Below, in pieces: positions 4,689 to 26,977 of a stretch of 32,000 nt of DNA. The position numbers and the translations under genes are program-made. Position 1 is the first letter of the stretch. Each line of letters begins with the position of its first letter. Under the pieces are notes generated by a model that was given only the letters and a program-made list of their open reading frames with translations, had not been told where the DNA came from and made no database searches. The DNA comes from an uncultured Candidatus Saccharibacteria bacterium (lineage in GTDB: Bacteria; Patescibacteriota; UBA1384; XYA2-FULL-43-10; 1-14-0-10-43-13), in the NCBI GenBank assembly GCA_964543385.1, contig CAZIYE010000002.1, positions 60,001-92,000 on the forward strand, read 5' to 3'.

Positions 4689-5852
4689 ATGGTATTCGCA
4701 GAATCTCTTGGGAGGGAGGTTGGCACTTATATTAAGAATTTACTCAATAAGGAAGTTTGTATTGTAGATGGAAAGGGCCAATGTGTTGCATCTCCCAACG
4801 ATGTTCTAAATGGCAAAACTGTAAATCTGCCAGGATTTGTCAATGATTTGAGCTCTCCTAAAGATTATATGGATAATGGTCAGAGTAAAATAATTATTCC
4901 TCTACGCTATCAGTCTAAAAATGTAGCTTATATACTTTTCGACGGTGATTCTAACGAGGTAAAAAACTATTCACTTCTAGTAAAAAGTTTTGCCGAGTTG
5001 CTTGTACAACAATATTATGAAAACAATAAACCTATTCTTGACCCTACTGATAATTTCATTATAGAACTTTTTGAGAATTATAGTCCTAGCGACAAGGCAA
5101 AACATGAGGCTGAGGCGAGAGTGCTGGGTTATGATCTATCCAAAAAAAGATTAGCTATTTCTATCTATTTAGAGGGATTTTGGGATAACTGTCTTCTGGA
5201 TTTAGATCAAGCTAGCTTTGAGCGTGATCAAATAATAAAAAACTGGAAAAGAAATTTAGAGCAATCCATAAATAGTTTTTTCACTAAGAATGCAGATCTT
5301 CTTATAGCCTATGTGGGAAATGATAGGTTTGTCATATTCAAATCAGTCGATGGAAGCGATGAAGAATCAGTCAAAAAACTGCTTAAGAAATCATACAAAT
5401 CTATTTTTGATACTCTTAAAAATCATAGGATCAAGAATATTACAGTTGGATTTGGTAATGCCTATCAATACATTGATGGTTTAATTAGATCCCGTCGAGA
5501 AGCCGATTTGACGTTGGAGCTTGGTCAGAGAATTTGGGGCGATGGACAAAGTTATTACTTTGGTGAACTAGGACTACTTTCAATTCTTGGCGATGGAGAT
5601 AGAGAAAAGAAAGTTGAGTTCTCGGATACTCTGCTGACAAAATTGAAAAATGATGAGTTAAATAAGACACTCGAATCTTTCTTTGAAAACAATCTCAATC
5701 TGACAGAAACCGCGGAGCAGATGGGAATTCACAGAAATACTGTCATATATCGCTTAAATCAGATCACAAAGGTCCTGGGCGCAGATCCTAGAGTTTTTGA
5801 ACAGGCTATGTCAATCAAAATCGCTCTTATTATACGTGGCCTATTTGGCTAA
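4689..5852 (+). CDS. CdaR/PucR-family transcriptional regulator (sugar-diacid-recognition domain plus C-terminal HTH)
   Basis: The track ORF starts at GTG 4686. ATG 4689 has better spacing to SD AAGGA (4680-4684). C-terminal PucR-type HTH: LTETAEQMGIHRNTVIYRLNQITKVLG. The N-terminal region resembles the diacid-recognition domain. Confidence 0.8.
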   Translation: MVFAESLGREVGTYIKNLLNKEVCIVDGKGQCVASPNDVLNGKTVNLPGFVNDLSSPKDYMDNGQSKIIIPLRYQSKNVAYILFDGDSNEVKNYSLLVKSFAELLVQQYYENNKPILDPTDNFIIELFENYSPSDKAKHEAEARVLGYDLSKKRLAISIYLEGFWDNCLLDLDQASFERDQIIKNWKRNLEQSINSFFTKNADLLIAYVGNDRFVIFKSVDGSDEESVKKLLKKSYKSIFDTLKNHRIKNITVGFGNAYQYIDGLIRSRREADLTLELGQRIWGDGQSYYFGELGLLSILGDGDREKKVEFSDTLLTKLKNDELNKTLESFFENNLNLTETAEQMGIHRNTVIYRLNQITKVLGADPRVFEQAMSIKIALIIRGLFG

Positions 5853-5885
5853 GATTTTTAAATCTCTGTAGGGGCAAAAAGAGAT

Positions 5886-5936
5886 ATATATTCAAAATAC
5901 CACCAGAGATTATTCTAGGTGGCATTTTGAATATAT
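5886..5936. terminator. Bidirectional terminator-like hairpin between convergent genes
   Basis: 19-bp arms ATATATTCAAAATACCACC (5886-5904) and GGTGGCATTTTGAATATAT (5918-5936) with one mismatch and a 13-nt loop. AT-rich flanks on both sides. Confidence 0.5.
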
Positions 5937-5959
5937 GGTCTTGTTGTGTTGCTGTTCGG

Positions 5960-7867
5960 CTATCTTGAATTTGCGCTTCGTATGTACCATTCTAATCCAG
6001 CCCAACCAATTAATAGGATAGCCGGGATTATCAGGAAGGAAAAATTATTTTGTTTCGGACTGACAGGATCCATTGGAGTATTAGTCATTGCTATAGTAGT
6101 GATCTTATTGTCTGTATTACTGCTTTCAAATATCTGTTTATCTATTTTACCGTTCTGCGTGACCCTTTCATTTATATCAGTTTTTCTCTTCGTATTAGTT
6201 CTGATTTTCTCTTCACTATTTATATTAATTTGGCTTTTTCCTACTACACCCGACAGGACTTTCTCTGTTACAACGGGCGTGAAGGTGGAGGCATCATCCT
6301 CTTTCTTTATTTTATTTGATAAGTTACCATGCCAATTGCCAAAGATATTGATTATTTTTAGAGTCATCGTACCTGCTTTGTCAGATAAGCTATTCATAAT
6401 ATTAACAACATTTGAATATAGATCGATACTGCCGGTTTTAATATTACCAACAGCAGTGTTATTGCTTATGGTGTTTGTTCCGGTATTGGCATATATTTTA
6501 ACATTATTGTTAGTATCAACATGATTATCTTGCAATAGATTTACGGTATTTGATGATTCGATTGCGTTTGCGTTAGTTGAGTCTGATCCAGTCGTATCAT
6601 TAGCCAAATCTGACTTTGTTTCCAGAGAACCAAATCCGATTGGGGGAGCGTTTGATCCTCCTCCTAGAAATGCCATTGGATTTGCTCCTACTCGGTTGAT
6701 AATGAAATTGCCGGAGTCGACAAGATCAATTGCATCACCGACCCACTCGCCAAAAACATTAATAATATGTAGGGTTCCGGAATCATTGTTGAGCCAATCA
6801 ATATTGTTGCTATTAATATCTGTGCCGCCGGTCATAATATTGCCAGTAACTGTATTGGTAGAGATATCGTTTTTTCCAGTATTGGTGGTATATTCGAGTG
6901 AATTAATAACATTAATATTATTGCTGTGCTCGATATTTATTTCAGTGCTACTACCAATATTGTTGTAATCATATGAGGAGTCTCCAGAACTATTACTTCC
7001 TGCCCTTGGGATTATAATATCAGCATCTAAATCGTTCAGAACATTAATTACACCAACTGACATAATCATATTAGGGTTTACAAAATTTTGCAGATTGATG
7101 AGATTTGTAGCAAGACTTATGTCCCCGGTTGTGATATCTCCGACCTTTGTGTTCTGATCTACATTATTGAGTCCGGTATTGGCATTAATAATTAAATCAT
7201 TATTTGTACCAGCGTTATTATTATCCAAGATACCTATGACATTATTTTGATCAAGTGTATTAATATTGAGTGAATCATTGCCAGTTGTACCGTTGTAAAG
7301 ATTACTCTGCCCTTGAAGTGGAATCGATGTTCCATACATTGCATTATTAGTTAAATCTAGATTCGTCAATCCAGATCCATCGATAGTAGAAGCTGAAACT
7401 TGAGATCCTTCTGCAAATTGACTGTTCGAAATGTTAACAAAGGTGAGGCCTGCATCAATTTCGCCAGTTTCAATCGATCCAACAATAGAATTGTTTCCGA
7501 TCTGGTTAGCTCCAGAGTTTAGGGCGATATTAGCATTGTTGCTAGACGCTATATTAGTATTGTTGTTTTGGCTTATAGCGTTAATATTTTCGGAGTCAGG
7601 GCCGGTATTATAATTAGTTTCGGATATGTTTTCACTTACTGTGGACGTATTGTCTATGGGCACAGTAGTAGTTTCTTCTATTCTGCCAGTTACCATCTCC
7701 GGTCCTGTGATAATCTGGACTCCAGTTGGCACTTGTGGACCGACATCTCCTAAAGTGCCTCTTGTGCTGTCTTCAGCATGAGATAGCCCGTAGGGCAGAA
7801 AAGTAAAAAACATCATCAAAATAATGCTGAATGTTTTTTTTGCGGCTATTAATATAGTTTTTTTCAC
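5960..7867 (-). CDS. Secreted Asn-rich NTG-repeat protein with C-terminal membrane anchor (635 aa)
   Basis: GTG start with SD GGAG 5 nt upstream. Signal peptide MKKTILIAAKKTFSIILMMFFTFLPYGLSHA. About 4 copies of a 70-90 aa module (TGPxSxN ... ANTGxNxxxxNTxxGxIxTGxxD). Two NxFGxWxG motifs. C-terminal hydrophobic helix FSFLIIPAILLIGWAGLEWY followed by a basic tail. Confidence 0.8.
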   Translation of the reverse strand: MKKTILIAAKKTFSIILMMFFTFLPYGLSHAEDSTRGTLGDVGPQVPTGVQIITGPEMVTGRIEETTTVPIDNTSTVSENISETNYNTGPDSENINAISQNNNTNIASSNNANIALNSGANQIGNNSIVGSIETGEIDAGLTFVNISNSQFAEGSQVSASTIDGSGLTNLDLTNNAMYGTSIPLQGQSNLYNGTTGNDSLNINTLDQNNVIGILDNNNAGTNNDLIINANTGLNNVDQNTKVGDITTGDISLATNLINLQNFVNPNMIMSVGVINVLNDLDADIIIPRAGSNSSGDSSYDYNNIGSSTEINIEHSNNINVINSLEYTTNTGKNDISTNTVTGNIMTGGTDINSNNIDWLNNDSGTLHIINVFGEWVGDAIDLVDSGNFIINRVGANPMAFLGGGSNAPPIGFGSLETKSDLANDTTGSDSTNANAIESSNTVNLLQDNHVDTNNNVKIYANTGTNTISNNTAVGNIKTGSIDLYSNVVNIMNSLSDKAGTMTLKIINIFGNWHGNLSNKIKKEDDASTFTPVVTEKVLSGVVGKSQININSEEKIRTNTKRKTDINERVTQNGKIDKQIFESSNTDNKITTIAMTNTPMDPVSPKQNNFSFLIIPAILLIGWAGLEWYIRSANSR

Positions 7868-7957: not shown

Positions 7958-8839
7958 TTAATTAGCCTGATTTACACCAGTAATATTGATACGAACAGAA
8001 CCGGTTTCAATATCACCAACACTTGTGTTACACCCTATATGGTTATTTCCAGTGTTTGTATTGATATTATAATCATTGTTAATATCGGCACGATTGTTAA
8101 TATCGACATTAACATCTGTCTGAGCATTGATCACATTCTCATTCTCTGAGTTTGGACCAGTGGTATCGTTTGTGAAATCGGCAGATATGCTATTGCCTGC
8201 TATGTTGCCAAGGTCAATCATAGAAGTATTTCCATTAGCAACATTTTTAATATCGGACGAAATATTAATATCACCTGTCGCTATATTCCCCACTACTGTG
8301 TTGTTCTCAACTTCATTACTACCAGTATTTGAGTCGAAGTCGATATCATTTGAGATGTTTGTAAGATTGTCAACCTCGATATTTACGTTACGGTCAAAAT
8401 TAATTATATTTTCATTTTCTGAGTTGTAGCCAGTGAATTCATTGCTTCCGGTAAAGTCAAGCGAGCCAAAGAGATCGCTAAAATCCCAATTGACAGAATT
8501 ACCATCATTTAACTGGTTGTCAAAATTAAGATCAGCTATAACATCACCAGTTTGATAATCTTCAACTATCGTGTTGTTTTCGATTTCACCATTGCCTGTC
8601 TCAACGCTGACGTCGGCATCATTATTAAGAACGGAATTATTATCTACGCTGATATCGTAGTCCATATCGGAGTTTTGTTCCGATATATTCTCTGAGTTTG
8701 GACCAGTTATGTCATTTGAGAAATCGGAATTGACGTTAGCGTAGGCAAGTCCAGTTCCCACTAATAAGACAAGGGCAGAAATTGCGGCAAACGAACGAGC
8801 TAGAGTTAAAAATTTTTTGTTCATTTTTTTCCTTTTCAT
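7958..8839 (-). CDS. Secreted Asn-rich NTG-repeat protein, shorter paralogue (293 aa)
   Basis: Signal peptide with AYA-N cleavage-like site (LLVGTGLAYANV). Three copies of the same module (TGPNSENxxxxxxD...; SNTGSNEVENNTVVGNIATGDI; TNTGNNHIGCNTSVGDIETGSV). No C-terminal hydrophobic anchor. Confidence 0.8.
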   Translation of the reverse strand: MKRKKMNKKFLTLARSFAAISALVLLVGTGLAYANVNSDFSNDITGPNSENISEQNSDMDYDISVDNNSVLNNDADVSVETGNGEIENNTIVEDYQTGDVIADLNFDNQLNDGNSVNWDFSDLFGSLDFTGSNEFTGYNSENENIINFDRNVNIEVDNLTNISNDIDFDSNTGSNEVENNTVVGNIATGDINISSDIKNVANGNTSMIDLGNIAGNSISADFTNDTTGPNSENENVINAQTDVNVDINNRADINNDYNINTNTGNNHIGCNTSVGDIETGSVRINITGVNQAN

Positions 8840-9084
8840 AAAATTTAATTTAATTCACGAACTTTTGTGTATGTTTGTTTGTACACAGGTGGATTAATAT
8901 ATGCCCCCGTGTATCGACCTTCTTTCATTCTAGTATCGAAAAAGAACTTTCCTACATCATATTCCGACAAATCGAAATGATTAAAGAAAAGTTAATTTGA
9001 TATTTTTCATAATTAAATAGCACCCCTTTAGGTGCTAGAAATAGTTTATTAAACAAAGTGAAAATCTAAAAGCAAAGGATGCAA

Positions 9085-9519: not shown

Positions 9520-9903
9520 CTAGACAATTTCTCTGATTTTGTTCACTACATCCTCGGGAGTATTGAGAGATTTTACCATATAACCTTTTGCTCCCAGAGA
9601 TATTGCCAGCTTTGTATCGCTATCTACGGATTCGCTGCCAACATTTGTTAGCACGAGTACGGGTATATTTTTTGTTGAATTATCGTCCTTTAGCTTTTTG
9701 AGTATTTCGAACCCATTAATATTGGGAAGCAAAACGTCTAAAAGAATGATATCGGCACCTTCGCGTGCCCTTTGCATAGCAATTCTTCCATCAGTAACAG
9801 TCAGAACGCGGAATCCTTCATTTTTTAATTTTTCCTTATACATTTCTACTAGAGATTGATCATCTTCAATCAATATCACTGTTTTTTTCTTTGCTTTTTC
9901 CAT
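9520..9903 (-). CDS. Single-domain response regulator (receiver only, CheY-like)
   Basis: 127 aa. Acidic pocket IEDD, phospho-acceptor context IILLDVLLP, conserved T (VLVLTN) and K (GYMVKS). No output domain. Starts 17 nt after the kinase stop. Confidence 0.9.
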   Translation of the reverse strand: MEKAKKKTVILIEDDQSLVEMYKEKLKNEGFRVLTVTDGRIAMQRAREGADIILLDVLLPNINGFEILKKLKDDNSTKNIPVLVLTNVGSESVDSDTKLAISLGAKGYMVKSLNTPEDVVNKIREIV

Positions 9904-9920: not shown

Positions 9921-12098
9921 TTATTTTATAAATGAGGGCAGAGTTATGTGAAATGTTGTACCTTTATTTTTCTCACTCTCGACCCAAATATCTCCTTGTT
10001 GCTTGTTAATTAATTTTTTGGCGATAAATAATCCCAATCCAGTACCACCTGCCTTGATCGATAATTTATTTGGGATTCTTACAAATCTATCAAATATCGT
10101 TTGGATATGTTCTTTTCCAATGCCAACACCCGAATCCTTTATAGAAATTATTACTTGGTCATCATTCTTACCGATGGTAATATTAACTTCTCCTTTATCA
10201 TTCGTATATTTTATGGCATTATCAACAATATTTTCAATGGCATGCTTTGTTTTAATTTTATCTGCGTAAATAAGAGTAGATTTCTTCTTGGTGAAAATTA
10301 TATTGATAGACTTTGCTTTGGCCTTTGACCCTAGATTATCAAGAACTTCTAATATGAGTTTATTCACATCAAAGCTTTGTACATTCAGGGCAACCCTATC
10401 TTCTTCTATTCTTAATGTTTCCAATACATCTTCTACAAGATGGGTCAATCTCTCAGTCGACATATATGCTCTGGTAAAATACTTCTCCTGCATGTTGTTT
10501 AATTTTCCAGCGTCACCATGTAGTATCATGCTCAAATAGCCAGCTATAGAGGTTAAAGGTGTTCTTAGTTCGTGAGCAGTTGTAGTTATAAATTCATTTT
10601 TAATTTGTATAAGGTTTTTTTCTTTTGAGATATTACGTAAAACAATAATAATATTCTTACTTATATGAGTGTTGGACTGTAAGGAGGAAAAAGATGCATT
10701 TAGCCATATTTTTTTACCAAATTTATCTGTCATTTCTTCTTCAATAGCCGTATCTTTTGCTTTGTTGACGCTCTTAAAGAAACTATCGATAATAACAGAT
10801 ATTTTTGCAAGCCCTAAGCTATTTAGAAATATATCGTGATAGTCTAGAGCGATAGTATCATGAGCTGAAAGATGGGTGATTTCTTCTATGTATCTATTCC
10901 AGATAATGATTTTTCCTTCTTCATTTATTACAGCAACTCCGTCATTAACATTAGTAATTACTTTATCTAGAAGCTCACGCTCAGCTTCTGATTGGCAAAA
11001 GAGCCGGCTATTCTCAATTGCAAGACCGATCATGCCAGCTAGTATCTGCAAGAATTGAACTTCGGATTCTGAAAATTGCTTAACTCTTTCATAACTAACT
11101 GATAAAACCCCTATTAATTTCTCATTTGGCATAATCGGTATGCAGACAATGCTACCTTCCTTGTCTTTCCCTAGATATGCTTTACTTTTTTTCGTGTCTT
11201 CTACAATAATTGTCTGCTTCTTTTCGGCGCAAAGTCCGGCGATGCCCTGACCATTTTTAAAACTCTTGAAATTTTTTGGTACTGATTCTCCATCAGATCT
11301 TTTAATCGCTTTGATTATGATCTCTGAAGAGGAATTATTTATTAGCCCAATACTTGCAGTATTTGAATTAAAGGCTGCTAATGTTTCATTCACGGCTGAA
11401 TTTAAAATGGTATCCAAATTTCTAACCTTGAATAAAGCTTTTGATAAGTGATATATTAAATCACTTTTCTTATCAAGGAGATAGGAAGGACTAATAGTTT
11501 TTGTAATCAAATTATTTTCTGAAACAAGATTTACTTTTGTTTGTTTTTTGCCTTTTATAACTACATTTTCGATCAAGTATCTAACAGGAACTGTTAAATT
11601 AAGATTAAGGGCTTCTCTCGGTGTAAACCAATTATAACCATCACTTTCTGAGCTAAGAAAAACCTCGACATCCTTTGGCATCTCGAAGCTAAATAAATAC
11701 CATTCATGGATATCAACACCATAACGACAACGGTCACCTTTGATCTCCCCCTTATAAATAAGCTCTACTTCTGGGATGATTATGCCTGTCTCTTCGAGTA
11801 TTTCTCTGCCCAAACTTTCGATAGGGGTTTCTCCCTCTTCAAGATGACCACCTGGCGTTGCCCAGCAATATGGATACATCCGTCTTTTTATAAGTAGAAT
11901 TTTTCCATTATGCCAAATAATAGCTCCTGCCCCTGCATGCTTTATTCCTTCTGGGGTGTTCAACTCTACTACTGGTCTCGAAGTATTATTAGCTCTTTGG
12001 GAGATAGTCATACAAGAATGACAGTAGTAATAATGCCTACCTTTTTTGTTAACTTCTGTAATTTGTTCGCTCTCACATTTTGGGCAATAAAATTTCAT
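9921..12098 (-). CDS. Sensor histidine kinase: Zn-ribbon, Nudix, GAF, PAS, HisKA, HATPase_c
   Basis: 725 aa. CPKC...CHSC (nt 12012-12086). Perfect Nudix box GHLEEGETPIESLGREILEETGI (nt 11781-11849). GAF-like region (GQGIAGLCAEKKQTIIVED...IPIM...GVLSV). PAS-like region (VNDGVAVINEEGKIIIWN). H-box HELRTPLTSI. N, G1 and G2 boxes (DNAIKYT, DSGVGI, GGTGLGL). No TM segment seen, so probably cytoplasmic. Confidence 0.9.
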   Translation of the reverse strand: MKFYCPKCESEQITEVNKKGRHYYYCHSCMTISQRANNTSRPVVELNTPEGIKHAGAGAIIWHNGKILLIKRRMYPYCWATPGGHLEEGETPIESLGREILEETGIIIPEVELIYKGEIKGDRCRYGVDIHEWYLFSFEMPKDVEVFLSSESDGYNWFTPREALNLNLTVPVRYLIENVVIKGKKQTKVNLVSENNLITKTISPSYLLDKKSDLIYHLSKALFKVRNLDTILNSAVNETLAAFNSNTASIGLINNSSSEIIIKAIKRSDGESVPKNFKSFKNGQGIAGLCAEKKQTIIVEDTKKSKAYLGKDKEGSIVCIPIMPNEKLIGVLSVSYERVKQFSESEVQFLQILAGMIGLAIENSRLFCQSEAERELLDKVITNVNDGVAVINEEGKIIIWNRYIEEITHLSAHDTIALDYHDIFLNSLGLAKISVIIDSFFKSVNKAKDTAIEEEMTDKFGKKIWLNASFSSLQSNTHISKNIIIVLRNISKEKNLIQIKNEFITTTAHELRTPLTSIAGYLSMILHGDAGKLNNMQEKYFTRAYMSTERLTHLVEDVLETLRIEEDRVALNVQSFDVNKLILEVLDNLGSKAKAKSINIIFTKKKSTLIYADKIKTKHAIENIVDNAIKYTNDKGEVNITIGKNDDQVIISIKDSGVGIGKEHIQTIFDRFVRIPNKLSIKAGGTGLGLFIAKKLINKQQGDIWVESEKNKGTTFHITLPSFIK

Positions 12099-12226
12099 GG
12101 TAACTAATAACTATTTATAAATGTAATATCTAGTTTAATTGTAAATCAAACGCATTTTTATATGAAAATATAATAATAAACTTAGTTTACACATATTTTT
12201 TTGTACATTATCACAAACAAATCCTA

Positions 12227-12255
12227 TTGACATTCCAATGTATATATTATACAAT
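12227..12255 (+). promoter_or_regulatory. Near-consensus sigma70-type promoter driving the GC-rich island gene
   Basis: TTGACA (12227-12232), a 17-nt spacer, then TACAAT (12250-12255). The implied transcription start lies downstream of the track ORF start at 12238. Confidence 0.5.
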
Positions 12256-12312
12256 ATAAAGTTCTTATTGTCAATAATGGCAATAGAACAAATGCAAAAG
12301 GAGGCTACTGTG

Positions 12313-13179
12313 ATGCGTGACCACGATTCTTTGTCGGACATAATAGCAGTAAATCGTGCAGTAAGAGACAACATAATCGATGAAGCCCCTGACTACCGGG
12401 CTCGGATATTGCCAGATCCCTTGAGGTTCACTATCGAACAAATTCTGGTAGGGATTGAAAAGTTTGTGGTGTTCCTGGGCGATGGTCCAGGGGCTGGCCG
12501 CACCTTTTTCATGGAGCAACTTATGACTCGGTATCCCGATCAAATCGGTATATTGCCGCTTCATATGACGCGTGCCAGAAGGAATGGTGAAATCGAGGGA
12601 ATCCATGGCCATTTCATGGGTCCTAAGAGCAAGCAGGCATTTCGTCATCTAGAGGAGTCTGATTTCTTCTTTCTCTCCTTTCAACTGGGGATTGCAAAAA
12701 GAAAGAAGCTTGCTGGAATTTCAATGCATGACATGAGTTGTGCAATAGATTCAAGCAAGATTTGGCTCATCGATATGCCAGCTTACGCGATACCCCGGTT
12801 CTCTGGGGTATTCAACAGGACAAGGATAGTCCTGGTCACTGCTCCGCCGGTTGATCATTTGCGAAATCTGCGTCGTCGTGGTTTCTCAGATAGTCAGCTT
12901 GCCGATTGCTATTGGCAGAATGAGATTGGCACATGCGAGCCAGTGACCCTTCCCCCGGTACAGCCGATCGTTAATAAGCGGTGTCGTACTGAGGCAAATA
13001 TGGAGCTGCTTCGGGAATTCGTTCTCGACAGCACGCTTCCTAGCACCCATTCTCCTCCCTGCTTGAGCGGGGAGGAGAATGAATCAAATTATATTGGCCC
13101 CGAAAAACGGAGGCCTTTTTTTGGAGAGCGATATAAATTTATTGGCTTTTCATTGTATGTTATCCAAAATTCAGCATAG
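12313..13179 (+). CDS. Guanylate-kinase-like P-loop protein with degenerate active-site motifs, on a GC-rich island
   Basis: Start refined to ATG 12313, 8 nt after SD AAAGGAGG (12297-12304). Walker-A-like GPGAGRT has Arg (12499-12501) where Lys is expected. MTRARRNGEIEGIHGHF parallels the guanylate kinase TTRxPRxGExxGxxYxF. WLIDMP, VLVTAPP and LRRRGFSDS parallel the Gmk D-I-D, IFI-PPS and RLxxRG segments. Confidence 0.6.
   Translation: MRDHDSLSDIIAVNRAVRDNIIDEAPDYRARILPDPLRFTIEQILVGIEKFVVFLGDGPGAGRTFFMEQLMTRYPDQIGILPLHMTRARRNGEIEGIHGHFMGPKSKQAFRHLEESDFFFLSFQLGIAKRKKLAGISMHDMSCAIDSSKIWLIDMPAYAIPRFSGVFNRTRIVLVTAPPVDHLRNLRRRGFSDSQLADCYWQNEIGTCEPVTLPPVQPIVNKRCRTEANMELLREFVLDSTLPSTHSPPCLSGEENESNYIGPEKRRPFFGERYKFIGFSLYVIQNSA
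13096..13122 (+). terminator. Intrinsic terminator lying inside the 3' end of the island ORF
   Basis: GGCCCCG (13096-13102), loop AAAAA, CGGAGGCC (13108-13115, one bulged A), then T7 (13116-13122). The G+C drop to background coincides with it. Confidence 0.5.
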
Positions 13180-13240
13180 TATTTGTAGCCGTCAAGGTCC
13201 TTATTAACATAATAATCAATATTTGTACCAAAGTATAAGG

Positions 13241-13378
13241 ATGATGATGGTGTCTACCAGAATATTTAAATTATTATTGAAGCTTTTTCTGCATATATAT
13301 AATATGTGGCTGGTAGTGAAATTCTTGAAAATAGTTCTAAATAAAAATGGTCATTGTTTATTGTTCGATGCTAAATAA
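13241..13378 (+). CDS. Possible small basic/hydrophobic peptide (45 aa), speculative
   Basis: Hand translation gives MMMVSTRIFKLLLKLFLHIYNMWLVVKFLKIVLNKNGHCLLFDAK. AAGGA abuts a triple ATG. The stop codon lies within the left arm of the 13373-13409 hairpin. No homology evidence. Confidence 0.2.
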   Translation: MMMVSTRIFKLLLKLFLHIYNMWLVVKFLKIVLNKNGHCLLFDAK

Positions 13379-13409
13379 AATAGAGAAGGGAACCTTCTCT
13401 ATTTTATTT
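13373..13409. terminator. Bidirectional intrinsic terminator downstream of rplT
   Basis: Perfect 17-bp inverted repeat AAATAAAATAGAGAAGG (13373-13389) / CCTTCTCTATTTTATTT (13393-13409) with a 3-nt loop. The outer arm portions supply A/T runs on both sides. Confidence 0.6.
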
Positions 13410-13429
13410 ATTCAAGCGTAAAAATAGTT

Positions 13430-13996: not shown

Positions 13997-14521
13997 TTAT
14001 GATTTCTTTTCTTCTTTTAATGCAGCTAACATTGCTACGATTTGGTTTCCGGCTCTCATCGGTCTATTCTCATAGCCAAGCCCTGCTTTTTCTGCAAACT
14101 TATTGAAAACGCCCATTGCCACATCAGCAAATGCATTCTCCCTTCCTCTTAGTCTCATGGAAACTTTTACCTTGTCACCACTATCGAAGAAGTCCCTAGC
14201 TTGTTTCGCTTTATATTCAATATCGTGATCACCGATCTTAAAAGTCAGTCTTATTTCTTTTAATTCAACTTCTTTTCTTTTGGCTTTGCTTTCTTTTTCC
14301 TTTTTGGCAAGGTCATATTTGTATCTGCCAAAATCCATAATTTTGCATATAGGAGGGCGGTTTGTTGGATTTATCTCAACCAAATCAAGGCCTTTATCAT
14401 GTGCCAAAGCCAAAGCCTCTTTAGTAGATATAGAACCTAAATTACTGCCATCTTCATCAATAACTAATACAGGAGAAAATCTGATTTGCTCATTAGCGCG
14501 AAGATATTTTTCTTTCTTAAT
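13997..14521 (-). CDS. infC: Translation initiation factor IF-3 with non-canonical start codon (ATT, or ATA at 14524)
   Basis: The track ORF (TTG 14413) lacks the IF-3 N-domain. The frame is open upstream to TAA at 14557-14555 and encodes (I)IKKEKYLRANEQIRFSPVLVIDEDGSNLGSISTKEALALAHDKGLDLVEI. No ATG, GTG or TTG lies in that stretch. SD AAGGAG (14536-14531) is 6 nt from ATA and 9 nt from ATT. Confidence 0.9.
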   Translation of the reverse strand: MKKEKYLRANEQIRFSPVLVIDEDGSNLGSISTKEALALAHDKGLDLVEINPTNRPPICKIMDFGRYKYDLAKKEKESKAKRKEVELKEIRLTFKIGDHDIEYKAKQARDFFDSGDKVKVSMRLRGRENAFADVAMGVFNKFAEKAGLGYENRPMRAGNQIVAMLAALKEEKKS

Positions 14522-19889: not shown

Positions 19890-20327
19890 ATGCAAATATC
19901 TAGTTCTGCTTTCGAGAATGGTGAGAAAATCCCTCAAATCTTTACTTGTGATGGTCAAGATATAAGCCCGCATTTGCTCATAAGCGATGTTCCGAGCGAG
20001 GCTCTAAGTCTAGCGCTAATCATGGACGATCCTGATGCCCCCAGAGGAATCTGGACGCATTGGATAATGTGGAATATTCCACCACAGACCATCGATATCC
20101 CTGAGGGAGATTTTGTGGAGGATACTGTTGAGGGGATAAACAGCTCCGGCTCTCAGGGATATTCCGGACCGTGTCCCCAAGACAAAACCCATCGATATTT
20201 TTTTAATTTATATGCCCTAGACACAGTTTTAGATCTGGGGGCTGATGCTGACCTCGAAGAACTGACCGCAGAAATGCAAGGACATATAATTACCGAAGCA
20301 AAGTTTTTTGGCACCTATGGAAGATAG
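19890..20327 (+). CDS. YbhB/YbcL-family PEBP (Raf-kinase-inhibitor-like) protein
   Basis: 145 aa. LIMDDPDAPRGIWTHWIMWNIP and HRYFFNLYALD are PEBP signatures. Confidence 0.85.
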   Translation: MQISSSAFENGEKIPQIFTCDGQDISPHLLISDVPSEALSLALIMDDPDAPRGIWTHWIMWNIPPQTIDIPEGDFVEDTVEGINSSGSQGYSGPCPQDKTHRYFFNLYALDTVLDLGADADLEELTAEMQGHIITEAKFFGTYGR

Positions 20328-22311: not shown

Positions 22312-22881
22312 ATGGATGATCAGATTAAAATTTTAGGAATCGCTGGTAGCATAAGAGAGGGATCTTACAATAGGATGTTGCTAAAATTTGCCAAGAGTTC
22401 GGCTAATCAGTCACTGGCAAGTATGAATATCTATGATATCGAGAAATTGCCGTTATATAACCAAGACATGGAGCAAAATTTGCCGAACAGTGTTAAAGAA
22501 TTCAAGCAGGCGGTAGCGGAGTCAGATGCGATTTTGATGGTCACCCCAGAGTATAACTATTCAATCTCTGGTGTCTTAAAAAATGCAATTGACTGGGCTT
22601 CGCGACCATTTGGTGATAATTCTTGGGCAGGGAAACCAGTTGCGATAATGGGGGCTTCTACTTCTGGCTTTGGAACGCTTCGAGCCCAGCTTCATTTGAG
22701 GCAAATATTCCTATATCTTAACATGCATCCAGTCGCTGAGCCTGAAATTTATGTTTCTTATGCGGATCAAAGATTCAATAAGAGCGGCGAATTAATAGAT
22801 GATGATATAAGAATGAAAGTCAAAAATTTACTCGATGCCTTGATTATAAAGACAAGGTCAATAAAGGGTCTGTCATGGTAG
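22312..22881 (+). CDS. NAD(P)H-dependent FMN reductase family oxidoreductase
   Basis: 189 aa. ILGIAGSIREGSYNR and TPEYNYSISGVLKNAIDWASRP are typical of the SsuE/ChrR/YieF-like family. Confidence 0.85.
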   Translation: MDDQIKILGIAGSIREGSYNRMLLKFAKSSANQSLASMNIYDIEKLPLYNQDMEQNLPNSVKEFKQAVAESDAILMVTPEYNYSISGVLKNAIDWASRPFGDNSWAGKPVAIMGASTSGFGTLRAQLHLRQIFLYLNMHPVAEPEIYVSYADQRFNKSGELIDDDIRMKVKNLLDALIIKTRSIKGLSW

Positions 22882-26500: not shown

Positions 26501-26977
26501 ATGATTAAAATTGTTTATGCAGTTCTGTTGGGAGTGATTCTTGCTTTTTTTATTGGGTTGGGAATAGAGGCATTTTATCCGACAGAAAAGTATCCCGAAG
26601 CACCAACGGAGGTTCAATATGGCAAGGTTGATGGGGGAAATCTCTCTGCGGATGAAATAAAAGCTCAGCGAGATTTCGATACAAAGGTCAAAGAATTTCA
26701 GGATCGGAACAAGGACCATGCTAAAAACGTCTCACTCGTTGCTATCATCGGTAGCATCATTTATATGATAATAAGCCTTGCCGTTCTAAATAAAAAGGAT
26801 GTCTTCGCAGATGGTTTCCTTATCGGTAGCCTGTTGACCTTGATTTACGGCATAATGCGAGGATTTGAGAGTGACGATAGCAAGTTCCGTTTTATTATTG
26901 TTTCGGTTGGATTGGCGGCTGCGCTTATCCTCGGTTACTTTAAATTCCTGCGCCAAAAAGAAGAGCCAAAGAACTAG
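26501..26977 (+). CDS. Hypothetical 4-TM membrane protein
   Basis: 158 aa. SD GGAGG at 26489-26493. No recognisable motif. Confidence 0.6.
   Translation: MIKIVYAVLLGVILAFFIGLGIEAFYPTEKYPEAPTEVQYGKVDGGNLSADEIKAQRDFDTKVKEFQDRNKDHAKNVSLVAIIGSIIYMIISLAVLNKKDVFADGFLIGSLLTLIYGIMRGFESDDSKFRFIIVSVGLAAALILGYFKFLRQKEEPKN

Follow-up and report, generated by a model that had tools for sequence, protein, structure and literature searches.

The guanylate kinase (GK) domains of the MAGUK proteins, among them PALS1/MPP5, PSD-95/DLG4, DLG1 and CASK, no longer possess the catalytic P-loop but retain the phosphate-binding arginines, and serve as ligand-binding modules. The protein considered here is the 288-aa product of an ORF at 12313-13179 (+ strand, stop codon 13177-13179) in a 32-kb stretch of DNA, referred to below as the window, and by sequence the MAGUK domains are its closest solved structures (7m4r and 4wsi, E 5e-4). 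Like them it combines the GK fold and a degenerate P-loop with phosphate-binding arginines, a resemblance of design from which we claim no membership. The MAGUK domains are eukaryotic scaffold domains that occur together with PDZ and SH3, whereas the window protein is bacterial, stand-alone and of a single domain, with no Pfam match to PDZ or SH3, and its orthologs retain a canonical Walker A.

Canonical guanylate kinase (Gmk; PF00625, TIGR03263) has the same fold as the window protein (1gky, E 6.8e-11, TM 0.76) and shares with its family the T-R-x-x-R-x-x-E motif, the Gly of YG[TS], the R-G of the lid and the C-terminal x-x-N strand. The family differs from Gmk in lacking its Tyr (D-Y-H-F), Glu (I-E-[WY]-A), Tyr/Thr (Y-G-T) and Asp (L-D-I-D) and in carrying some 50 additional aa at the N-terminus, and the window copy differs further in having DGPGAGRT where Gmk has GxxxxGK[ST]. 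Phage guanylate kinases (PHROG phrog_1815) are matched by 6/6 family members (E 1.7e-3 to 1.6e-11), but the context of the present gene, with ribosomal protein genes and uvrA, is chromosomal, and a search of IMG/VR gave no relative. A comparison of a different kind is offered by the GC-rich islands that mark structured RNAs in AT-rich genomes, and by selection for mRNA structure acting on synonymous sites (reviewed in PMC3575835). The window gene resembles such islands in the sharp rise in GC over one transcript and in a folding energy far below composition-matched and synonymous-permuted controls, and differs from them in being a protein-coding gene with clear homology, for which the Rfam searches gave neither a defined RNA family nor a conserved fold.

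The reading that we favour, with a probability of about one half, is that the gene is a fast-evolving unit of GK fold, resident at its locus and tied to the operon of a NUDIX-bearing histidine kinase, whose GC richness is its own property and would reflect the structure of its RNA.

Composition and expression signals

Against a GC content of 0.364 for the whole window, the GK-like gene stands at 0.46-0.49, and the region 12201-13200 at 0.43-0.485 in 400-nt windows. The edges are steep: in 100-nt windows the GC is 0.24 at 12200 but 0.48 at 12300, and at the other end it is still 0.52 at 13000 but 0.30 at 13150. The GC-rich island reported in the initial annotation is confirmed by the sliding-window GC and GC3 that have now been computed, the GK-like ORF being the most deviant of the 32 ORFs in the window (GC z 3.3, GC3 z 3.7). 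Given its own amino acids and the synonymous codon usage of the window, a GC3 of 0.323 would be expected and 0.476 is observed (z 5.8); the 31 remaining genes, treated in the same way, range from z -2.1 to +3.2. The excess has two components, the use of Arg for Lys and the use of G-ending codons: about 4 GC points come from a protein rich in Arg and Pro and poor in Lys and Asn, and about 6 points from G-ending synonymous codons.

Translational optimisation is an unlikely source of the high GC3, since the codons in excess end in G and not in C, and are ones that the background seldom uses (CGG, CTG, GGG and CCG); it is also disfavoured by the neighbouring ribosomal protein genes, which have no such GC3 shift. 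An overlapping or antisense gene was ruled out as well, as the open stretches in alternative frames do not exceed those of codon-shuffled controls in 6/6 genes.

Upstream of the ORF lie a near-consensus promoter-like site, TTGACA-17-TACAAT (12227-12255, + strand, 11/12 matches), and a full Shine-Dalgarno sequence, AAAGGAGG (12297-12304, + strand), 8 nt 5' of the ATG at 12313, both of which had been recognised from the outset. In the full transcript this Shine-Dalgarno is predicted to be paired (P unpaired 0.07), a long-range prediction of low reliability. Promoter-like and Shine-Dalgarno motifs are also recognisable by eye upstream of the orthologs. A mirror-image promoter-like site, TTGACA-17-TATAAT (12246-12274, - strand, 12/12 matches), faces the operon of the conserved, divergent neighbour, and the -10 elements of the two sites overlap. 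This operon encodes a Zn-ribbon/NUDIX-GAF-PAS-HisKA-HATPase sensor histidine kinase (9921-12098, - strand) and a response regulator that consists of a stand-alone receiver domain (9520-9903, - strand).

The intrinsic terminator that had been proposed for the gene is recognisable as a terminator-like hairpin GGCCCCG...CGGAGGCC followed by T7 (13096-13122, + strand), but it sits inside the ORF, 55 nt 5' of the stop codon, and not beyond it. The same terminator-like stem is also flagged on the - strand. Another strong hairpin, with 16-nt arms that are 94% complementary (13048-13081, + strand; 15 bp, pairing probability 1.00), is predicted within the C-terminal tail of the ORF, which is modelled with low confidence.

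Relatives, synteny and divergence

The family of the GK-like protein is tiny: six members were found in a search of 1.84 billion representatives, the full-length relatives by phmmer being P0006, P0007, P0008 and P0019. Among 5.8 billion clustered proteins and the same 1.84 billion representatives there was no close homologue, and matches above 34% identity were self-matches only, so that no donor lineage emerged from the comparison that the initial annotation had called for.

Three of the family members lie in settings that can be compared directly with the window. Locus L015 is collinear with the window from Lon to uvrA and carries a 223-aa family member between the histidine kinase and rplT, divergent from the kinase and response regulator genes; at L005 a GK-like gene lies beside rplT, convergent with the rplT C-terminus; and at L003 genes for NUDIX, histidine kinase and response regulator are divergent from the GK-like gene P0007, the identities to the window proteins being 60% for the response regulator, 39% for the histidine kinase, 39% for NUDIX and 29% for the GK-like protein. 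These counterparts exceed their flanks in GC by 8 to 11 points (0.531 as against neighbours of 0.38-0.46 at L015, 0.463 as against 0.381 at L005, and 0.543 as against 0.456 at L003). The excess over the flanks is present at 6/6 loci, although it is small in L006 and L004. G3 is raised by 0.10-0.155 in the GK-like genes, and GC3 given the amino-acid sequence, with its z of 5.8 in the window gene, reaches 4.9 and 2.1 in counterparts.

The kinase neighbourhood was seen at three loci among the six known family members, and the association consequently draws on few, partly related genomes. A genome scan with the histidine kinase, in a collection that excludes the genome of the window itself, returned distant kinases only, and a metagenome scan in which the NUDIX domain was the query yielded 80 NUDIX loci, all generic and all without a family member. 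In the literature we found nothing on a link between NUDIX, GK-like proteins and histidine kinases or on NUDIX-fused sensor kinases, and the search for defence systems with PADLOC gave no match save two weak P-loop hits for P0019.

The GK-like protein is the fastest-diverging one at the locus. Between the window and L015 the neighbouring proteins are 43-79% identical (uvrA 79%, rplT 73%, response regulator 69%), whereas the GK-like pair falls below 25% and goes undetected by BLASTP (E 0.27); within the family, pairwise identities are flat at 24-34% and show no species-like ordering. Divergence of this strength fits both allele replacement and rapid vertical divergence. Under recurrent allele replacement, a conserved position between the NUDIX kinase and rplT would have its GK-like occupant exchanged again and again, by recombination with diverged or GC-richer lineages, and GC-biased gene conversion or incomplete amelioration would hold GC3 high. 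The undetected pair, the flat identities and a GC above the flanks at all six loci are in line with such exchange, but none of the sampled pairs is similar enough to reveal a transfer, and the GC of the gene follows that of its host (46-49% where the genome has 36%, 53% where it has 42%, 54% where it has 46%) and not a single donor value. The window locus is also devoid of repeats, integrase and tRNA, and foreign origin does not predict the sense-biased excess of structure over synonymous permutations that is described below. We consider recurrent replacement unlikely, while keeping it in view.

Fold, motifs and likely activity

The initial annotation had recognised the protein as collinear with guanylate kinase, and profile and structure searches agree. 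The exhaustive phmmer search gave 29 matches, which include canonical GK domains at E 3e-16, and the comparison with a canonical-GK HMM gave 2.8e-16. The AF2 model has a confident core (pTM 0.70, with block-mean pLDDT of 68-95 for residues 41-200, 48 for 201-210 and 72-89 for 211-240). Every one of the best 50 PDB matches found with Foldseek for this model is a GK or a MAGUK GK domain, the best being 1gky (TMt 0.76-0.77 over about 198 aligned columns), and GK is the sole family that the protein resembles. The curated profiles are matched below their thresholds: Pfam Guanylate_kin aligns with residues 52-118 alone (E 3e-5, 24.2 bits, gathering score 25.2), TIGR03263 reaches 20.8 bits against a cut-off of 160.45, and the five other family members likewise score under the curated guanylate-kinase thresholds. 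The N-terminal extension of about 50 aa is specific to the family. At the other end, residues 191-242 model as the strand and helix with which the kinase fold ordinarily closes at its C-terminus, and the C-terminal extension, first put at about 90 aa, shrinks to about 46 aa (residues 243-288, pLDDT < 50).

The Walker A, in which a Lys-to-Arg change had been noticed, reads DGPGAGRT (12481-12504, + strand), and Asp57 additionally replaces the first Gly; in the AF2 model, which has a strand at 51-56 and a helix at 63-73, Arg63 occupies the position of the Walker Lys. This Lys is missing in the window protein alone, the other 10 of the 11 aligned sequences keeping GK[TSD], and its loss is unique to the window copy among the six family members. 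The TRxxRxGE segment and the RLxxRG-type lid are present as described earlier, the former as TRARRNGE (12568-12591, + strand), which is the conserved motif for phosphate binding in the NMP site, and the latter as HLRNLRRRG (12856-12882, + strand). T86, R87, R90 and E93 are invariant across the 11 aligned sequences and G190 of the lid is nearly so; in A1, the alignment of five family members, R189 does not vary.

A different picture is given by the positions that we take to be the GMP contacts of the yeast enzyme (Tyr50, Glu69, Tyr78/Thr80 and Asp98/100). The canonical Y (DYHF), E (IEWA), Y-G-T and D (LDID) are represented in the window protein by G98, L, A134-G135-I136 and I/M, and the corresponding positions are unconserved throughout the family. 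Judged from the alignment, the residues that give canonical Gmk its GMP specificity appear to be lost family-wide. The window copy is probably non-catalytic, although the exchange of the Walker Lys for Arg is no proof that nucleotide binding was lost. Because the Walker A is degenerate and the guanine/GMP contacts appear to have gone across the family, the earlier suggestion of a pseudo-kinase or of an altered specificity appears reasonable to us.

The same features invite the thought that the window gene is a decaying relic, in which the Lys and the first Gly of the Walker motif were lost and a former stop came to be read through into the 3' UTR. DGPGAGRT is found in no other family member, the last 46 codons span the 16-bp hairpin, the terminator and an AT-rich spacer and are modelled as disordered, and the orthologs stop about 20 residues past the conserved Asn, with hairpins straight after their stops. 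An ORF that runs through its own terminator could indeed reflect incipient decay instead of function. Decay is, however, hard to reconcile with an intact frame of 288 codons where the other two sense frames hold 15-17 stops, with the retention of the invariant T-R-R-E residues, with a signal of structure at synonymous sites equal in strength to that of the orthologs, and with strong expression signals that remain unbroken. For these reasons we rate it as distinctly unlikely.

Structure of the transcript

In four genomes the MFE of the GK-like coding sequence lies well below that of synonymous-codon permutations (z -6.2, -5.5, -4.25 and -4.4, with 0/40 permutations reaching the observed energy), and it does so too when the pair span is capped at 100 nt (z -5.0, -6.0, -4.6 and -3.6; 0/60), values that are based on 20-60 permutations and are to be read alongside control genes of which some reach -3. 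Against dinucleotide shuffles the sense strand gives z -5.0, -8.1, -5.3 and -2.95 and the antisense strand -1.4, -4.2, -2.6 and -1.5. Control segments, 25 in number and drawn from the window, range from z +1.3 to -3.45. L006 and L004, which have little GC excess, have no excess of structure. At third positions it is G that is in excess, and this makes G-U pairs possible in the sense RNA only.

The predicted helices form many local hairpins whose positions mostly differ. One nested hairpin is predicted over the stretch that encodes strand beta-1, the P-loop and the beginning of helix alpha-1 (12456-12511, + strand), with helices of pairing probability 0.81-1.00 and an energy of -29.8 kcal/mol as compared to -16.9 kcal/mol for synonymous permutations (z -3.5, 1/300), and L015 has a predicted hairpin in the corresponding position (z -3.3, 0/300). 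It is not a family-wide element, the prediction for L005 being non-significant and none being obtained for L003, L004 and L006.

These observations bear on the possibility that the transcript is itself a functional structured RNA, that is, a dual-function coding RNA with the GC island marking the RNA element. The sense-biased excess of structure in four diverged genomes, the hairpin that covers the codons of the P-loop in both the window and L015, and the G-U pairing open just to the sense RNA would all be consistent with this. Rfam, however, gave no family at gathering thresholds across the whole window and, for 12150-13250, nothing at E up to 1 except two chance-level hits, and the many local hairpins, which mostly do not coincide in position, fit general stabilisation better than one defined fold. 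A dedicated structured RNA seems to us improbable.

Origin of the gene

The initial annotation interpreted the locus as a horizontally acquired single-gene island and asked for a chimeric assembly to be excluded. The latter is unlikely, because two independent Logan assemblies, made from different runs, agree with 100% identity over the locus, and we reject it. As to the former, the recent gain of a self-contained cassette by this genome would be in keeping with compositional boundaries that are sharp at the start codon and the terminator, with the possession of its own promoter, Shine-Dalgarno and terminator, and with zero close homologues among 5.8 billion clustered proteins. Yet the gene is not missing at the same locus in relatives: L015 and L005 have a family member in the same slot and L003 has one beside the orthologous kinase operon, with a like GC offset. 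Mobility genes, flanking repeats and viral relatives were likewise looked for and not found. The lack of an integrase, a transposase and convincing flanking repeats, already remarked upon, holds for the window, where repeats amount to chance-level matches of 12-16 nt; there is no tRNA in the 32 kb that could have served as a target, and a phage origin finds no relative in IMG/VR. At the locus level the transfer reading finds no support. The gene is no recent import, because related genomes hold a GC-enriched, hairpin-rich counterpart by the same sensor-kinase genes, and we give recent gain very little credence.

That the gene is simply the divergent housekeeping guanylate kinase of the organism is very improbable, for although no other family is resembled and the window holds no canonical gmk, the score for TIGR03263 is far below its cut-off, the Walker Lys is missing, the canonical Tyr, Glu, Tyr-Gly-Thr and Asp positions are unconserved, the gene is the fastest-evolving at its locus, and six members only were found among 1.84 billion representatives.

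Discussion

Our preferred reading, that of a fast-evolving unit resident beside the NUDIX kinase operon, would have the GK-like gene be a promoter-to-terminator unit proper to the locus. Its family would have kept the phosphate-binding T-R-x-x-R-x-x-E and the Arg-Gly of the lid while doing without the canonical residues of GMP specificity, and the gene would stay adjacent to, and divergent from, the operon for the NUDIX-GAF-PAS histidine kinase and its response regulator, with overlapping mirror-image promoters. From this arrangement we infer that the GK-fold protein and the kinase operon may cooperate in nucleotide sensing or turnover. For instance, the NUDIX domain might cleave a ligand of the nucleoside di- or triphosphate type, and the GK-fold protein might bind or re-phosphorylate the resulting monophosphate. 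As the Walker A of the window copy now reads DGPGAGRT and the arginines of the NMP site are intact, this copy is most likely a ligand-binding regulator that acts without catalysis, which would have come about by an evolutionary route like that of the MAGUK GK domains.

With regard to the RNA, the G-ending codons would be placed such that the sense transcript folds into many local hairpins. This would point to selection on mRNA structure, which might serve the stability of the message or, alternatively, throttle its translation.

A bolder and doubtful extension is that the locus represents an undescribed bacterial module, in which a fast-evolving GK-fold protein, a pseudo-kinase in some lineages, has a NUDIX-fused GAF-PAS histidine kinase as its partner, and in which mRNA structure is selected across lineages, raises the GC by about 10 points and so mimics a transfer island. 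The RNA structure would then be part of the regulation and might, for example, gate translation or the life-time of the transcript in response to the same signal.

Conclusions

The locus provides a counter-example to a common shortcut, as a single gene that is an outlier in GC and GC3 and has its own promoter and terminator is not automatically a transfer island; the counter-example is founded on counterparts at the same locus with an equal offset and on transcript structure that resembles the product of selection. The loss of the Walker A, unique to the window copy, offers a natural comparison of enzyme and pseudo-enzyme inside one orthologous group, in parallel with the origin of the animal MAGUK scaffolds from guanylate kinase. 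The family constitutes a branch of the guanylate-kinase fold that is rare and unannotated, appears to be without the GMP-specific residues and is genetically linked to a NUDIX-sensor kinase, and this branch points to a nucleotide-linked signalling unit, as yet uncharacterised, in AT-rich bacteria about which little is known.

Reading frame and expression signals

The region 12227-13179 contains one plausible gene, encoding the guanylate kinase (GK)-like protein of 288 aa, which runs on the forward strand from an ATG at 12313 to a TAG at 13177-13179 and is identical to the NCBI protein call (P0001). A Shine-Dalgarno (SD) sequence, AAAGGAGG (12297-12304, +), lies 8 nt upstream of the ATG, and a near-consensus sequence resembling a sigma-70 promoter (TTGACA-17-TACAAT, 12227-12255, +) precedes the gene. 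A perfect TTGACA-17-TATAAT on the opposite strand (12274-12246, -), also sigma-70-like, is directed at the upstream kinase operon. These mirror-image promoters (12227-12274) have overlapping -10 boxes, and the -35 box of each is found downstream of the point where the other starts transcription, a layout in which transcription of the GK-like gene and of the kinase operon would be competing or co-regulated.

The initial annotation had described a self-contained expression unit; promoter and SD are indeed present, but the terminator, a shorter hairpin followed by T7 (13096-13122), sits inside the ORF. So does a 16-bp hairpin in the disordered tail (13048-13081; 16-nt arms CUCCUCCC / GGGGAGGAG), one arm of which is anti-SD-like and the other SD-like. 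Folding of the full transcript, a highly uncertain prediction, pairs the SD of the gene with CUUCCU shortly before this hairpin, at about 13035-13041. Beyond the gene, just past the rplT stop, lies an inverted repeat whose two 18-nt arms match perfectly around a 3-nt loop (13372-13410; TAAATAAAATAGAGAAGG / CCTTCTCTATTTTATTTA), likely a bidirectional terminator, since A/T runs flank it on both sides.

Protein fold and motifs

The Pfam Guanylate_kin model matches residues 52-118 (E 3e-5; 24.2 bits, slightly below the 25.2 threshold), TIGR03263 reaches 20.8 bits where 160 is required, and among solved structures the sequence is matched best by MAGUK GK domains and yeast GK, with E values of about 5e-4 to 4e-3. 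An exhaustive phmmer search of 1.84 billion representatives gave 29 matches, with canonical GK domains reaching E 3.4e-16, and an HMM of nine canonical GKs matched the window protein at 2.8e-16. For an AF2 model built on an alignment of five sequences (pTM 0.70; core 41-242 confident, 1-29 and 243-288 of low confidence), all top 50 Foldseek matches in the PDB were guanylate kinases or MAGUK GK domains, the best being 1gky (E 6.8e-11, TM 0.76). The protein has the guanylate kinase fold, as had been proposed, yet is not a bona fide Gmk, the canonical enzyme.

T86, R87, R90 and E93 are invariant in an alignment of 11 sequences, and the Walker lysine is kept in 10 of them; the exception is the window protein, whose DGPGAGRT bears out the Lys-to-Arg change read from the sequence. 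Strand 51-56 and helix 63-73 of the AF2 model put Arg63 exactly where the lysine would stand, and Asp57 in place of the first glycine. In the same alignment the family shows no conservation where canonical GKs have the DYHF Tyr, the IE[WY]A Glu, the Y-G-T segment and the LDID Asp, positions which we take to be GMP/guanine contacts in the yeast enzyme; this argues that GMP is unlikely to be the specificity of the family. Fold and motif states together lend support to the earlier idea of a pseudo-kinase or an enzyme of altered specificity. The N-terminal extension (about 50 aa, first estimated at about 55) is common to the family and includes a conserved TP[DE][YF] hairpin; the C-terminal one is only about 46 aa long rather than about 90.

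Family members, neighbourhood and divergence

No donor lineage emerged from homology searches: word-seeded searches of 5.8 billion clusters returned no protein but the window's own, and the exhaustive search contributed the relatives P0006, P0007, P0008 and P0019, all full-length and 25-31% identical. A sixth member was obtained via synteny on L015, a 27-kb contig located through the kinase ortholog P0033, with the gene order of the window kept between Lon and uvrA. This 223-aa ORF lies between the kinase gene and rplT, carries GSFCLGKST and TKTRPPRQGE, and matches other family members at BLASTP E 2e-8 to 8e-7 and the phage GK profile at 6e-7. On L003, a 400-kb contig, P0007 divergently adjoins genes for a free-standing Zn-ribbon/NUDIX protein, a histidine kinase of GAF-GAF-PAS architecture and a response regulator made up of a receiver domain only; all three have orthologs in the window, the first two in the parts of the fused NUDIX-GAF-PAS kinase (39% identity each) and the third in its regulator (60%). 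P0008 on L005, a 1-kb contig, is convergent with the L20 C-terminus, as in the window, and a fragment downstream of the L006 member is weakly like the NUDIX C-terminus (E 8e-5). The GK-like gene is a stable part of its neighbourhood, the conserved unit comprising the GK-like gene, NUDIX, kinase and regulator.

On L003 a terminator hairpin (8780-8800; GAGCAGGA-GTAA-TCCTGCTC, then T5) has the stop codon of the GK-like gene in its loop, and about 70 nt past this terminator is a tRNA-Gln(TTG) (8867-8941), so that the neighbourhood on that side differs from the window, where rplT is found. The infC gene of the window (13997-14413, -) is listed with a TTG start, unusual start codons being frequent in infC, and has 138 aa; its L015 ortholog has an annotated length of 178 aa.

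Between the window and L015, identity is 79% for uvrA, 73% for L20, 69% for the regulator and 43% for the kinase, and for the GK-like proteins, by far the fastest-diverging products of the locus, BLASTP finds no significant match (E 0.27). The ORFs at 5960-7867 (-, 635 aa) and 7958-8839 (-, 293 aa), neither with a Pfam match, share 34% and 42% identity with their L015 counterparts and are therefore the next fastest-evolving genes; in the 635-aa gene, mRNA structure is also moderately in excess over the initial 735 nt (z -2.6 to -3.3). Identity across all pairs of the GK-like family is 24-34%, which would fit very rapid vertical evolution. An exchange of GK-like alleles at a fixed locus is also compatible with this range, and with a window/L015 pair that BLASTP misses beside so similar a uvrA; the two readings were weighed on six sequences only.

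The orthologs end about 20 residues past a conserved Asn, with hairpins right after their stops, whereas the window ORF runs through its own hairpins and terminator, and for this reason its last 46 codons are probably read-through of a former 3' UTR. This read-through and the Walker A changes leave room for early decay of the window gene; its frame is intact, however, while the other two sense frames hold 15-17 stops, and neither the invariant residues nor the synonymous-site signal has been lost.

Composition and transcript structure

GC content is 0.47-0.485 across the gene (400-nt windows) as compared to 0.364 for the whole window, climbing at the start codon and dropping at the terminator. 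The gene deviates more strongly than any other of the 32 window ORFs (GC z 3.3, GC3 z 3.7), and the single-gene GC-rich anomaly first counted by hand is thereby confirmed. The GC predicted from the amino-acid sequence alone, with the window's synonymous usage, is 0.412 against a background of 0.370, because the protein has more Arg (9.0% vs 3.7%) and Pro (6.9% vs 3.1%) and less Lys (3.5% vs 8.3%) and Asn (3.8% vs 6.3%); the observed value is 0.476. The synonymous part of the excess is a GC3 of 0.476 where 0.323 is expected (z 5.8; the other 31 window genes give z -2.1 to +3.2), gained chiefly as G (0.26 vs 0.16) at the cost of A (0.19 vs 0.32). Elsewhere in the window, three further small genes show mildly raised GC and GC3: the PEBP-family gene at 19890-20327 has GC 0.45 and GC3 0.40, the 158-aa ORF at 26501-26977 has GC3 0.42 (z 3.2 given its amino-acid sequence) and the flavodoxin-like gene at 22312-22881 has GC3 0.40.

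Horizontal acquisition of the gene as an island, the origin favoured by the initial annotation, is unsupported at the level of the locus, as counterparts at the same locus share the GC offset. Family genes and their flanks or neighbours have GC of 0.46-0.49 and 0.36 in the window, 0.531 and 0.38-0.46 in L015, 0.463 and 0.381 in L005, 0.543 and 0.456 in L003, 0.373 and 0.334 in L006, and 0.652 and 0.628 in L004; the offset tracks host GC, with no common donor value, a result that the initial annotation had itself listed as evidence against transfer. GC3 given the amino-acid sequence is likewise raised in L015 (z 4.9) and L003 (z 2.1), with G3 higher by 0.155 and 0.10, respectively. An assembly chimera is ruled out, because the window locus is reproduced exactly in two independent assemblies.

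The transcripts of the window, L015, L005 and L003 genes are more structured than dinucleotide shuffles in the sense direction (z -5.0, -8.1, -5.3 and -2.95, respectively; antisense -1.4, -4.2, -2.6 and -1.5) and than synonymous-codon permutations, which preserve protein, codon usage and GC3 (z -6.2, -5.5, -4.25 and -4.4). Coding-sequence stability is 32-45 kcal/mol beyond these permutations, and 0 of 40 match the observed energy in each of the four genes. The excess persists when pair span is limited to 100 nt (z -5.0, -6.0, -4.6 and -3.6; 0/60 permutations match) and thus sits in local hairpins. Under synonymous permutation, control segments (25, from 19 window genes) gave z +1.3 to -3.45 with no energy difference past -19.6 kcal/mol, and L006 and L004, whose genes have little GC excess, show no structure excess (z -0.4 and -1.1). 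A nested hairpin is predicted over the beta-1/P-loop/alpha-1 codons of the window gene (12456-12511; -29.8 kcal/mol, z -3.5), with one in the corresponding position of L015 (z -3.3) and another, not significant, in L005. Since structure exceeds that of synonymous permutations, no Rfam family matches the window GK-like region and no conserved overlapping ORF was found in the GK-like genes, the GC and G3 excess is best explained as gene-intrinsic and tied to RNA structure; as for the purpose of the structure, the simplest proposals are that it stabilises the mRNA or throttles translation.

Possible function

The sensor kinase (9921-12098, -) has an N-terminal CxxC...CxxC zinc ribbon and a NUDIX domain fused to GAF-PAS-HisKA-HATPase. 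The fusion is also present in L015, and in L003 the Zn-ribbon/NUDIX is a separate gene (7227-7784) overlapping the start of the kinase gene (4753-7230) by 4 nt; literature searches returned no description of such a NUDIX-fused kinase. Profile searches find the NUDIX domain to be MutT-, NudB- or RppH-like, which suggests a nucleoside-polyphosphate pyrophosphohydrolase, and a protein of GK fold would bind or phosphorylate a nucleoside monophosphate. The window copy, whose P-loop has Asp57 and Arg63 but whose NMP-site arginines are intact, probably binds its ligand without catalysing phosphotransfer, much as MAGUK GK domains do. The GK-like gene is a variant within the guanylate-kinase-fold superfamily with a conserved RNA-structure signature, and we infer that its product and the NUDIX-GAF-PAS kinase act jointly on a nucleotide-type signal.
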